Assembly: GCF_030384885.1 (NCBI RefSeq)
Contig: NZ_CP128613.1
DNA length: 64,000 nt
Reading direction: 5' to 3' (one strand)
From: Escherichia coli
GTDB taxonomy: Bacteria > Pseudomonadota > Gammaproteobacteria > Enterobacterales > Enterobacteriaceae
The position numbers were made by a program. Shown here piece by piece: positions 58,901-61,900 of the stretch; positions within the stretch are counted from its first letter, which is position 1, and each line of letters starts with the position of its first letter.

Positions 58901-61900
58901 GGCTTTCATCGTTATGGGCCATTTCATTTTGCGTTGCGCTGCCTTCTGGGTTTGCAGTATTAAACGTATTAATACCTGTGATACATGTCGGCACATATGT
59001 ATCCATGTTGTTTTGCTTCATAATGTTAGACAATTTTTCCAAAACAAGATCGTTAATTTCTCTATCTCTTTATATTTTAGTGTTAGCTCTAGCTTGTTTC
59101 AGTGATGACATCATAAAGCTACTCATTATTGCACCAGTAGCAATATCATCAGTGATTTTTATAGTAAAAACCAAAAGCCAAAAAAATCTGATCATACTAG
59201 TTGCAACTATATTTGCATATGTTGCATCAAAAATTATGACCATGTACGCAAGAGCTCATAACTGGTACATTTTGCCAGGCGTTCCAGATCCAACATTTGT
59301 TGCATTTGATGATATCCTGAATAATTTATACTTATTCGTAAAAGGATTCCTCCTATACAGTGGAGCTTTCTTCTTTGGCAAGCCACCTTCTGATATTACA
59401 GCGCTTATTTCTGTTTTTTGTTTTGTTGTAATGATTTTACTTCTTATATTAGTTGCAATGTCAGTAAAGGAAATATTCAAAACCTCCATGATCAATATGG
59501 CTATATGTATAGCTTGTATTATAATGATACCAGCATACCTTGCAAGTAACCGTCCAATAGATGAATGGACTATAAGATATATCGTTCCATTTTTTATACT
59601 AGCACCTGTTGTTATTGGCAGATCTAACAACTCCAGAGGGTGGAAATTCATCGCATTAGGGGTTGTTACAACATTTATTCTCTTTTGTTCTATTTATATG
59701 CATGAAAAAAAAGACAATTCTAATGATATTATAAATCAGATAAAACACACTGTAAGGCAGAATAACCTCACAAACGGGTATGCATCTTTCTGGTTTGCTT
59801 CATCAGCAAGTATAGATGGAGACATATCAATTGCTCCGATTGATGTAAACCGAGGTTTGAATATACTTGCATGCAATAAATGGTTGTCAAAAAACTATTG
59901 GTATGAGCGCGGAGGAAATTTCATAATTACAGATGACGAGGTTATGAGAAATATAACAATTAAAGAGATTGGTAATCCATCAAAGGTTATTGACGTCGGA
60001 GATAAGAAGATTTTTGTTTACGATAAAAACATTACATTCAACTGCAATTAATTAAATAAGCGGGTGCTAAGCACCCGCATTATCATACACTTGTACCATA
60101 CGCCCTCTTCCATTCAGATGATACTGTGTCCATATTGGAAGACCTAGCGTTGTATCGTAGTATTCAACTGGCACAATTGAAGAGACAGGCCTCTGCGCAG
60201 TTGTACCATATAACAAAGATGTCAACGGAGAAGTGCAGGCCGCAAACTGACTGATGATGAAAAAACGCGGCTGAATGCGGTACTCGACTACATCGACGCA
60301 GTGACAGCAGTTGATGCTGACGCTGCGCCTGATATCAACTGGCCCGCTCCCCCGGTTGCGTAGGCCACTCTATTTCGGGTGCCGCTGAGGTATCAACACG
60401 GTTCAGCAGTACCCTGTATTTTTTCCACGCCAGCAGTAACGCCTGTTCATCGTCTGTCACCATTTCCAAATCAACGGCATCCTGCAGCGGTGCTATTGCG
60501 TTATTTGCTACGGTCAGTAGTGCTGATTTCTGCAGCTCAGCCTCCGCAACTAACGCGTTGTGAGAGCGTTCTGGGGGAGGTGGCACGGTAAATACTCCGT
60601 CTGAATATGACCAACCGATGCCAGCATCGCCGTTTAACGGAACTAAATTACCAGCCTCTGGTTTCCATTCAGAAATTCCGTCCCAGATAATGACATTAAT
60701 AACAACGTTATTATCAACAACTGCATAGATATCATTCATTTACATGTACTCCCGAATTACCAGCACGCCATTAGCTCCGTGCCCGCCACGTCCTGACGTG
60801 TGTGAATAGCTATTATCGTATGCACCCCCGCCGCCGGAGCCAGAGCAAACTCCAGGATTACCGCTCAGTTGCCCAGCGCGGCCGCCGCCACCCCAATAGC
60901 TCGATGCCCCATTGCCTACTAATAGCGCCTGGCCCGCCTGTCCGTCTGAACCGTCTCCGCCTTGTTCAGTTTTATAACCGCCAGAGCCTGAGCCACCGCG
61001 CCCGCCAGCGGTATTTGTAGCGCCGCCCCATTGCCCACCCTGGCCGCCGAGCGCAGTTAATGTCATGAACGAACTATGACCGCCATTATTTCCAGACCCT
61101 GGCCCATTGGCACCACTACCACCGCTACCAATTGTCACTGTATAGGTCCCTGGCCCGGCATCGTTGTCTGTCGCATAAATAGTGGCAAAAACAGTACCTC
61201 CGGCTCCTCCGCCAGCCCCTGAAAATGTCTGATTTGCGTTCTCCGCGTTACATCCACCGCCACCGCCGCCCCCCGCAGTCAGAATAACGTCAATTCGTTT
61301 TACGTCAGCTGGCCACGTATATGAACCCGACGATGAAAAAACGACAGTTTTGCTGTAACGCCCCGAGCCATCTCCCAAACCAAGGTTTTCGAGAGCCGTT
61401 TTCACCGTGCCATCCGATTTGATATCACCAAACGGATTCTTGCGGCTTAACAGCAGCGCACGAAGCGCTGTAAGCAGCTGGTCATGCTGCCCCTTCTCCA
61501 GGCTGGCACCGGATGCCTCCACCACGCTGCAAAGCTCCTCCTGCAACATGTCAAAGTAGTCATCATCCAGATCGGTGGCAGGCGTGCCGGTCTGGGGGTT
61601 ACCACGGGTAAAACCGTTCTTACCCGCGCCGAACTTATCCTTCTGCGCGGTTTTCGTGTCTATACGATGCATGAATTACTCCGGATATTTAAAAATTACG
61701 TAGGTATGCGACGGGCAGAGTTTGTTAAGCACACACTCGACAACGGTGTCGCCCCAGATACGCAGTGCGGAATCACAGGGATCGCCACATGTCATCCAGG
61801 TGGTGTTGGTGGCAGCTGGCATGTTGACCTGCCAGTAATACCGCCATTCCGGCGCATTCACCGCGTCAGTACAGACCGATGAGCAGGTGAACGTGCTTTT

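Follow-up and report, generated by a model that had tools for sequence, protein, structure and literature searches.

A probable, inactive relic of an e14-type tail-fibre cassette joined to a tailspike remnant and a gtr operon in a reduced Escherichia coli prophage

Introduction

Is a pair of convergent tail-fibre assembly genes, one of them only a fragment, a working host-range switch or the scar of one? The question is raised by a locus in a 64,000-nt stretch of Escherichia coli DNA (contig NZ_CP128613.1 of assembly GCF_030384885.1), here called the window. A preliminary description had proposed that an intact minus-strand assembly gene (tfa) and a plus-strand fragment of a second one (tfa') are what is left of a decayed invertible cassette of the Gin/Pin/Cin type, with a gtr operon where the missing parts would be. 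This reading would fall if the fragment showed no similarity to Tfa. The evidence assembled below, all of it computational, supports the descent of the locus from an e14/Mu-type invertible cassette. The tfa/tfa' locus itself is very probably an inactive scar of two abutting gene remnants and not a working switch. The coordinates of the features are collected in Table 1.

Table 1. Features of the prophage remnant and their positions in the window
Feature	Position	Strand	Evidence or remark
Lambda att core GCTTTTTTATACTAA, bio-side end of the remnant	56952-56966	minus	exact match, 0.01 expected by chance
gtrA	57310-57672	plus	O-antigen glucosylation operon, convergent on tail genes
gtrB	57669-58583	plus	same operon
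gtrC	58585-60051	plus	same operon
GC-rich hairpin GCGGGTGCT/AGCACCCGC	60060-60078		8-bp stem, 7 GC pairs; minus-strand tail rich in T
P22-like tailspike 3' remnant, last ~40 codons (GTTAQRPVSSIVPVEYYDTTLGLPIW...GTSV*)	60083-60207	minus	antisense to the tfa' frame
Conserved patch inside the tailspike remnant, 33 nt	60130-60162		31/33 positions invariant in five loci
Joint between the two remnants, 27 nt	60208-60234		
tfa' remnant, last ~43 codons and stop of a TfaE-type gene	60235-60363	plus	Caudo_TAP, TfaE alignment, PGAP
Intact tfa, 134 aa	60335-60739	minus	Caudo_TAP E=1.9e-32, 112.6 bits
Tail-fibre gene, 310 aa	60740-61672	minus	Gly_rich_2 E=1e-18; StfP residues 1-128 at 80%
Variable C-terminus of the fibre gene	60740-61367	minus	glycine-rich
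Orphan Pin/Gin-type crossover site CTCTCGAAAACCTTGGTTTGGGAGATGG	61368-61394	minus	constant/variable junction of the fibre gene
Constant N-terminus of the fibre gene	61395-61672	minus	e14 StfP-type
ymfQ / Mu gp48-like baseplate gene, 5'-truncated	61676-62153	minus	Phage_Mu_Gp48 E=1e-22
DNA-circularisation gene fragment	62153-62796	minus	DNA_circ_N
Lambda-type integrase without its first ~14 codons	62790-63824	plus	Phage_integrase E=3e-40
Second lambda att core	63898-63912		

The prophage remnant and its tail genes

The locus lies in a prophage of 6.96 kb that is bounded by two lambda att cores and carries two internal deletions. One deletion, of 3.75 kb, accounts for the truncation of ymfQ and has its joint at 62152/62153, where the alignment to locus L001 jumps from position 8254 to 12005. 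The second, larger deletion fused the integrase gene to the fragment of a DNA-circularisation gene, and the Arm-DNA-bind_1 match of the integrase starts only at profile position 13.

Between these deletions and the gtr operon, the gene order is ymfQ (gp48), stf, tfa and then the convergent tfa'. PGAP splits the tail-fibre gene into an stfP pseudogene and a glycine-rich protein. The variable end is unrelated to that of e14 StfP, and the intact tfa shares only 38% identity with e14 TfaP. A tblastn search of phage genomes with the glycine-rich end gave zero matches, for which the low-complexity filter is a possible cause, and a search of phage records with the intact Tfa gave none covering at least 80% of it. 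Nor did tblastn of phage records find a relative in which a complete cassette and an invertase accompany the same glycine-rich fibre end and tfa. The stf-tfa pair left in the window is unable to build a tail.

A second tfa gene reduced to its 3' end

Is the plus-strand fragment a genuine remnant of a second tfa gene? Both the intact tfa, which ends at 60335 as had been proposed, and the fragment ending at 60363 match the Caudo_TAP family (PF02413) above its Pfam gathering cut-off of 22.1 bits. The fragment scores 43 bits (E=6.1e-11) over profile positions 94-130 of 131, so that similarity to Tfa is plainly present. It is 66.7% identical to residues 156-200 of e14 TfaE (E=1.5e-8) and 71-76% identical to the C-termini of phage Tfa proteins, and its DNA can be aligned with the tfaE-type genes of e14, SfIV, vB_EcoM-683R1 and vB_EcoM-640R3. 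The frame closes with a TAG at 60361-60363, and the N-terminal ~78% of the gene is missing. The fragment is shorter than the preliminary description had it: from a start at 60181, the first ~50 nt are not Tfa-derived, and homology begins at 60226 in the protein and at about 60235 in the DNA. PGAP annotates an identical sequence in strain M00057, corresponding to window positions 60235-60363, as "tail fiber assembly protein, incomplete, missing N-terminus". As an annotation, the tfa' pseudogene is thus not new and is already in RefSeq. A plus-strand open reading frame at 60126-60254 was rejected as coding, being antisense to the tailspike remnant.

The 3' ends of tfa and tfa' do overlap, as had been claimed, by 29 nt (60335-60363). 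These 29 nt of a short fragment are antisense to the last tfa codons, which might make tfa' a chance open reading frame, or an antisense artefact of the tfa 3' end that was never a second gene. This can hardly be entertained, because tfa does not extend over roughly 100 of the 129 nt of the fragment and both the profile score and the DNA alignments to four tfaE-type genes argue against it. Alternatively, tfa' may have arisen by local duplication, in inverted orientation, of its neighbour's 3' end, for example as a replication or repair artefact, given that the Tfa C-terminal motif occurs in both genes (44% identity over 36 aa). However, tfa' is much closer to TfaE-type genes (67-76%) than to the adjacent tfa, no inverted DNA repeat links 60235-60334 to 60364-60470, and an identical 29-nt overlap is present in loci whose second genes are full-length. 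Such a duplication is extremely improbable. The sequences favour a tfa' that is the 3' remnant of a TfaE-type gene. The searches turned up no complete parent gene for this allele; its nearest full-length relatives are 67-76% identical. Large protein searches with both remnants recovered nothing beyond these remnants, predicted as short open reading frames in E. coli, and a blastn "distant" search of phage genomes with 60052-60370 had a 75-nt stretch of a Yersinia phage tfa as its sole match.

An orphan crossover site

Invertible segments of this family need crossover sites, and the preliminary description had suggested a search for them. The search revealed a single site in the window, within the fibre gene, where it encodes ..LENLGLGDG.. 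at codons 93-102. The 21 nt at 61368-61388 (CCATCTCCCAAACCAAGGTTT) agree with the e14 site at 20 positions, where chance alone would give 0.01 matches. Homology to e14 and SfV (97-98%) ends at 61368/61371, that is, directly at the crossover site. This orphan site had not been included in the preliminary description. In e14, the P segment is bordered by a 16-bp inverted repeat, CCTTCTCCCAAACCAA (PMC12529663). No second pix-type site is present in the window, and an inverted-repeat scan of 57000-62800 yielded no flanking inverted repeat, only chance pairs or short AT-rich ones. Since the single crossover site has no partner, nothing would be able to invert.

The other parts of a switch are missing as well. 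The preliminary claim that no invertase remains is borne out by tblastn of PinE and the 683R1 invertase against the whole window (best E=2.8); gtrC occupies the position expected for the invertase, as the gtr operon had been said to do. A tblastn search of the whole window for a StfE homologue was likewise negative (best E=0.14). The Fis-dependent recombinational enhancer that acts in cis normally lies within the invertase gene; because the window has no such gene, the usual enhancer location is missing too. Thus, of the features of an active Din-family cassette, the window shows a fibre gene split at a crossover site and lacks an adjacent serine invertase, two inverted sites with identical central dinucleotides and two complete convergent gene sets. 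The first fibre/tfa set is complete, and of the second only TfaE residues 156-200 remain.

Could the switch still work in trans? The window contains exactly two copies of AAACCNNGGTTT, at 59847 and 61377 (0.07 expected), and the one in gtrC belongs to a gix-like stretch (59841-59866) that agrees with Mu gix, read as its reverse complement, at 18 of 26 positions, including a contiguous run of 15. Furthermore, PinQ, PinR and PinE act in trans on e14 sites (PMC12529663). The orphan site might then recombine with the gtrC stretch, or with sites in other prophages, by means of a Pin encoded elsewhere in the genome. Against this stands the established Hin/Gin mechanism, in which differing central dinucleotides block productive exchange: the gtrC stretch has GA, against AA/TT. 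The same gtrC sequence also occurs in L010, a podoviral prophage without a fibre cassette, and an inversion would break gtrC. On these grounds the gtrC stretch was rejected as a partner site; with no invertase in the window either, a switch operating in trans is very improbable.

The tailspike remnant and the gtr operon

Beyond the 27-nt joint, tfa' abuts a different kind of remnant, one that the preliminary description had not included and that probably arrived with the terminator and gtrABC in a P22-like block. The claim that no alternative fibre C-terminus remains holds for an S'v end of the cassette type; it does not hold for receptor-binding proteins in general, as the C-terminal ~40 residues and stop of a P22-like tailspike are present. 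The motif is one located at the very C-terminal end of tailspike and fibre proteins of phages, and it is homologous to intact tailspikes that converge on gtrC. Intact E. coli tailspikes are found at loci L009 and L010. The identity to the L010 tailspike is 99% up to 60162, apart from a 4-nt gap next to 60130, a deletion that shifts the frame of the remnant. In L003 the L010 tailspike C-terminus is found at 72.5% identity. Tailspike homology ends at the GTTAQRP codons. The right-handed beta-helix body is absent, and by its sequence 60083-60207 qualifies as a remnant and not as a member gene of the P22-like tailspikes. A large protein search found no parent of the GTTAQRPVSSIVPVE tailspike allele.

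The gtr operon and its flanks are 99% identical to the operon of L010, a P22-like prophage that occupies the same att site and carries DNA-ejection genes and an intact tailspike converging on the operon. PGAP names the products of gtrA and gtrB as GtrA family and GT2 proteins and that of gtrC as hypothetical. The hairpin at 60060-60078 is also present in L010, between gtrC and the intact tailspike, and in the window it is likely a bidirectional terminator common to gtrC and the tail operon. P22-like prophages of the E. coli strains ESC818 and PSS-11 have a tailspike that converges on gtrABC, and their gtrABC, terminator and final ~27 tailspike codons show 99% identity to the window; ESC818 also shares the lambda att site of the window. 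Their tailspikes are intact (504-589 aa) and belong to a podovirus, whereas the window has ~40 frameshifted codons fused to a myovirus tail module.

The remnant is a receptor-binding-protein C-terminus that is next to tfa' and points the same way as the tail operon, and might therefore be a third cassette of a multiple-inversion shufflon of the Min/p15B type instead of a podovirus import. Yet together with the terminator and gtrC it is 99% identical to the end of an intact tailspike in a P22-like prophage, a second gtr type is likewise paired with a tailspike at the same end-point, and the window has no further crossover sites. A third cassette is accordingly very doubtful, and an import from a podovirus is the preferred reading. 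Among 5,426 complete E. coli genomes, 68 carry the joint of the two remnants, one carrier being a near-complete 38-kb prophage at argW.

Comparison with known cassettes

The gene order of e14 is ymfQ, stfP, tfaP, convergent tfaE and stfE, and then pinE. The window resembles it in ymfQ and the first ~100 fibre codons (61368-62153; 96.8% identity to e14 and 97.8% to SfV), in a crossover site at the same codon position, and in convergent tfa genes with a 29-nt overlap that is also seen in SfIV, 683R1 and 640R3. In contrast, e14 has a full TfaE-type gene, stfE, a second site and pinE, where the window keeps only ~43 codons of the TfaE-type gene. The G segment of Mu, a member of the Din family, is arranged as gp48, S (constant and variable parts), U, convergent U' and S', and gin. 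It shares with the window the crossover core AAACC-NN-GGTTT inside the fibre gene, with sequence identity only at the family level. Unlike the overlapping genes of the window, U and U' are 28 nt apart, and neither the invertase nor the segment's second half is left in the window. The geometry is thus typical of invertible segments, as had been proposed, matching e14 and Mu in gene order and e14 in the overlap. With its e14-type site and TfaE-type remnant, the proposed decay of an invertible cassette finds support in these comparisons. On its shared flanking genes, site, TfaE-type partner and overlap, the locus can be counted as a probable relic of an e14-type P segment, and by analogy with e14, Mu and 683R1 its lineage would once have inverted.

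The serotype-converting Shigella myoviruses SfV, SfI and SfIV have the same Mu-type baseplate and fibre module and a gtr operon that converges on the tail operon beside attP-int; their variable fibre ends, tfa alleles, gtrC genes and integration sites all differ from those of the window. In SfIV the TfaE-type gene has lost its 5' end (residues 30-200 are left, at 92% identity) and shows the 29-nt overlap; it is cut by an IS element and not by a tailspike joint, whereas SfV has neither tfa' nor a tailspike remnant. Decay thus has intermediate stages: the full state is found in 683R1 and e14, SfIV keeps TfaE residues 30-200, and SfV keeps nothing. ORF-22 of SfIV was proposed to be an extra tail-fibre assembly protein with a possible role in host range (PMC3851460). 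From its sequence it appears to be a 5'-truncated relic of the same kind of cassette. No inversion relic is mentioned in the papers on SfI and SfIV.

Proposed origin and exchange of gtr cassettes

How might the locus have arisen? The ancestor would have been a temperate myovirus resembling SfV and e14, whose invertible fibre cassette was of the Din family (Pin/Gin-type) and laid out as a constant N-terminus, a crossover site, a variable end with tfa, a convergent tfa' with the alternative end, a second site and the invertase. A single illegitimate recombination may then have linked a point in the middle of tfa' with the final ~40 codons of a P22-like tailspike gene. This step would have removed three-quarters of tfa' from its 5' side, together with the alternative fibre end, the second crossover site and the invertase, and brought in a block consisting of the tailspike 3' end, the bidirectional terminator, gtrCBA, attP and int. 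In other words, host-range switching would have been lost and O-antigen conversion acquired. Because no full-length parents of the tfa' or tailspike alleles were found, we only infer that the joint was a single event.

In a third, later step, homologous recombination within the tailspike remnant appears to have exchanged different gtr cassettes between P22-like and SfV-like prophages. This step is indicated by incongruent similarity on the two sides of the 33-nt patch: in an alignment of five loci (A1), grouping follows gtr type on the left of the patch and phage type on the right, and homology end-points fall at window positions 60093, 60130 and 60162. The patch appears to be the crossover point for gtr swaps between podovirus-type and SfV-type prophages. 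Finally, in this strain the two internal deletions reduced the prophage to its present size. Today, the 250 nt from the tfa stop to the hairpin would form only the untranslated 3' region of the former tail operon, which appears to be drifting, as the 4-nt frameshift in the tailspike remnant indicates.

A use by the host might be another reason for the locus to persist. The fibre gene and orphan site would then be kept because the host uses them, with a Pin of the PinE/PinQ/PinR type encoded elsewhere recombining the site with e14-type sites in further prophages of the chromosome. This would lead to chimeric fibre proteins that block phage adsorption, which is reported for PinQ/StfE2, or to large programmed chromosomal inversions. 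Such a use by the host is very unlikely. Better supported is a role of the 33-nt patch, which the alignment suggests is a portable homology anchor for gtr cassettes shuttling between podoviruses and myoviruses.

Significance

The 7-kb locus is an ordinary scar of phage mosaicism, and no new mechanism is implied. Its main value lies in correct annotation and in illustrating phage evolution. It offers a base-pair view of how a temperate phage lineage would have traded a host-range switch for a lysogenic-conversion module through a single illegitimate join. The patch in the tailspike remnant is suggested as a route by which gtr cassettes may move between morphologically unrelated prophages, and the mobility of these cassettes is relevant to serotype diversification in E. 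coli and Shigella.

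The prophage remnant

The setting is the lambda attachment site region of the E. coli chromosome. Past bioA and ybhB lies a 6.96-kb prophage remnant (window 56952-63912) with an exact lambda att core at each end. The prophage is of the SfV/e14-like temperate myovirus type with Mu-type baseplate genes. gtrABC is followed by the tfa'/tailspike-remnant region, then by the minus-strand tfa, the tail-fibre gene and a ymfQ/Mu-gp48-like gene, and finally by a fragment of a DNA-circularisation gene and a lambda-type integrase without its first ~14 codons. The integrase (window 62667-63824) is joined in frame with an ATG farther upstream, within the antisense of the circularisation gene fragment. 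Measured against the copy of this prophage in strain M00057 (L001), the remnant has two deletions: 3.75 kb are missing at joint 62152/62153, and >25 kb, all sequence from the circularisation gene to int, were lost at a second joint at ~62796. The window strain can no longer produce a tail.

Features of the prophage remnant (window coordinates)
Feature	Position	Strand	Remarks
lambda att cores, exact	56952-56966 and 63898-63912		bound the remnant
gtrA, gtrB, gtrC	57310-60051	plus	
tailspike C-terminal remnant	60083-60207	minus	encodes GTTAQRPVSSIVPVEYYDTTLGLPIW...GTSV*
tfa' remnant	60235-60363	plus	PGAP pseudogene; Caudo_TAP C-terminal match
tfa, tail-fibre assembly gene	60335-60739	minus	Caudo_TAP E=1.9e-32
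tail-fibre gene	60740-61672 (L001 6841-7773)	minus	310 aa, chimeric, joined at crossover site

A TfaE-type remnant convergent on tfa

Enterobacterial prophages commonly carry relics of Pin-type fibre cassettes. The preliminary description had read the convergent genes at 60181-60739 as one such decayed invertible cassette. Its intact tfa, ending at 60335, was confirmed, and the plus-strand fragment ending at 60363 is indeed a Tfa C-terminus. The frame of the fragment matches the last 37 of 131 positions of the Caudo_TAP profile (43 bits, E=6e-11), and it is 67% identical to e14 TfaE residues 156-200 (E=1.5e-8) and 71-76% identical to the Tfa C-termini of several coliphages and SfIV. These matches argue against a chance ORF. 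The Tfa-derived interval does not begin at 60181, as homology starts at 60226 at the protein level and at 60235 at the DNA level. In RefSeq genomes, PGAP labels this very sequence a tail-fibre-assembly pseudogene without an N-terminus (window-equivalent 60235-60363); in other words, tfa' is already flagged in RefSeq. Could tfa' be a local inverted duplication of tfa? It is not a copy of its neighbour, because it is 44% identical to tfa versus 67-76% to TfaE-type genes and a search for an inverted DNA repeat linking the two found none.

The e14 genes run ymfQ, stfP, tfaP, then convergent tfaE and stfE, then the invertase gene pinE; the layout of Mu is the same, with gin as the invertase gene. 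The window gene order matches, and tfa' is of the TfaE type and occupies the TfaE position. The overlap of the 3' ends of tfa and tfa', already noted in the preliminary description, measures 29 nt, as for e14 tfaP/tfaE, and the same overlap is found in SfIV, vB_EcoM-640R3 and vB_EcoM-683R1, the last of which retains a DNA invertase. The loci can be ranked by degree of decay: the cassette is full in e14 and 683R1; SfIV retains TfaE residues 30-200 (92% identity), with an IS element cutting the gene and both stfE and pin missing; the window lineage retains residues 156-200; and SfV retains nothing. The rival reading of the minus-strand remnant beside tfa' as one more cassette, the third, of a Min-type shufflon is unlikely.

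SfIV ORF-22 (NC_022749, 4605-5129) is a TfaE-type gene without its first ~29 codons that abuts the IS element and is convergent on a functional tfa, again with a 29-nt overlap. It has been described as a unique extra protein for tail-fibre assembly and a possible host-range factor (PMC3851460). By sequence comparison it appears to be a truncated relic rather than an extra host-range gene, a minor re-reading that may be new.

An orphan crossover site in the fibre gene

The 1,797-bp e14 P segment is flanked by a 16-bp inverted repeat, CCTTCTCCCAAACCAA (PMC12529663). Window 61368-62153 shares 96.8% identity with e14 ymfQ and the first ~100 stfP codons and 97.8% with the SfV counterpart, and both homologies end at 61368/61371. 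At this end-point sits the crossover-site sequence CCATCTCCCAAACCAAGGTTT, which has a single mismatch to that of e14 (0.01 chance matches expected). The site forms codons 93-102 of the fibre gene (..LENLGLGDG..), past which the StfP C-terminus gives way to a glycine-rich domain (Gly_rich_2, E=1e-18). PGAP splits this ORF into a "stfP pseudogene, missing C-terminus" and a separate "glycine-rich domain-containing protein"; contrary to this split, it is one intact chimeric gene. The search for crossover repeats thus yielded one site, at the constant/variable junction of the fibre gene, but no second site in the window. An invertase and StfE-like sequence are likewise absent from the window, as had been proposed, but the alleged lack of any alternative C-terminus holds only in part, as a tailspike C-terminus is encoded beside tfa'.

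One rival reading was a trans-acting switch that uses a gix-like sequence in gtrC. AAACCNNGGTTT has two exact copies in the 64-kb window (0.07 expected), one of them in gtrC, and the gtrC sequence TTGATGTAAACCGAGGTTTGAATATA (59841-59866) agrees with the reverse complement of Mu gix in 18 of 26 bases, including an unbroken run of 15. However, inversion there would destroy gtrC, and this candidate partner site was dropped. The likeness is probably a coincidence, because the sequence also occurs in the podoviral gtrC of a P22-like prophage and its central dinucleotide is GA versus AA/TT at the stf site.

The e14-like order and site, the TfaE-type tfa' with its 29-nt overlap and the decay series support a decayed cassette of the Gin/Pin/Cin type. 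With a single site, no partner and no invertase, the locus should no longer switch and its fibre specificity would be fixed.

A probable podoviral block in place of the missing half

The preliminary description placed the gtr operon where the missing cassette half would be, and the sequence bears this out. The 180 nt separating tfa' and gtrC contain the tailspike remnant, whose motif is found at the extreme C-terminus of tailspikes and tail fibres in many phages (163 phage records). The loss of 4 nt beside 60130 puts the remnant out of frame. The P22-like prophage of E. coli strain ESC818 (L010), which has DNA-ejection genes, occupies the same att site as the window prophage. Its gtrABC is also the same, and its gtrC faces a convergent, intact beta-helix tailspike of 504 aa. 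Window and L010 are 99% identical over a stretch that starts with the chromosomal flank, takes in gtrABC and the hairpin at 60060-60078, and stops at 60162 within the tailspike 3' end. The same pairing recurs with a second gtrC type, as an SfV-like prophage (L002) shares 98.9% identity with a P22-like one (L009) as far as the same end-point. The replacement would thus have come in as a single podoviral block that was made up of the tailspike 3' end, the terminator, gtrCBA, attP and int and that became fused to tfa' partway along the gene. At the joint, 27 nt (60208-60234) are assigned to neither gene. The late operon would end at the terminator that came along with the tailspike, and the 250 nt from the tfa stop to the hairpin are best read as the untranslated 3' region of the old late operon.

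In L010, an ISEc31 insertion in the tailspike gene (5991-9015) parts the head-binding domain from the beta-helix body. GtrC (58585-60051, 488 aa) is 99% identical between one myovirus-type and one podovirus-type prophage and had no Pfam match in a profile search.

In an alignment of five loci around the tailspike remnant, a 33-nt patch (60130-60162, CCATATTGGAAGACCTAGCGTTGTATCGTAGTA) is invariant across all five except at 2 of its positions (31 of 33 identical). Left of the patch the loci group by gtr type, whatever the phage type; right of it they group by phage type, whatever the gtr type. The one backbone is joined to at least three gtrC types and is found at two integration sites, lambda att and argW, with gtr/backbone junctions at window-equivalent 60093-60162. 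The simplest reading is repeated homologous exchange inside the tailspike remnant; the role of the patch in gtr exchange may be a new but minor point.

Distribution and age of the joint

The two-remnant joint was found at 74 places in 68 of 5,426 complete E. coli genomes (full-length, >=94.7% identity) and had no match in the sequenced-phage collection. In one of the 68, strain CE0007a, the prophage that carries it is near-complete: it is 38 kb long, lies at argW and includes genes for regulation, lysis, head, sheath, baseplate and fibre. This distribution indicates that loss of the switch is older than, and separate from, the later decay of the window prophage. The literature searched, which included the SfI and SfIV papers, contains no description of the scar, and the exact joint may be new, though minor. 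gtrABC is the sole module still intact in the 6.96-kb remnant, which suggests selection for O-antigen modification.
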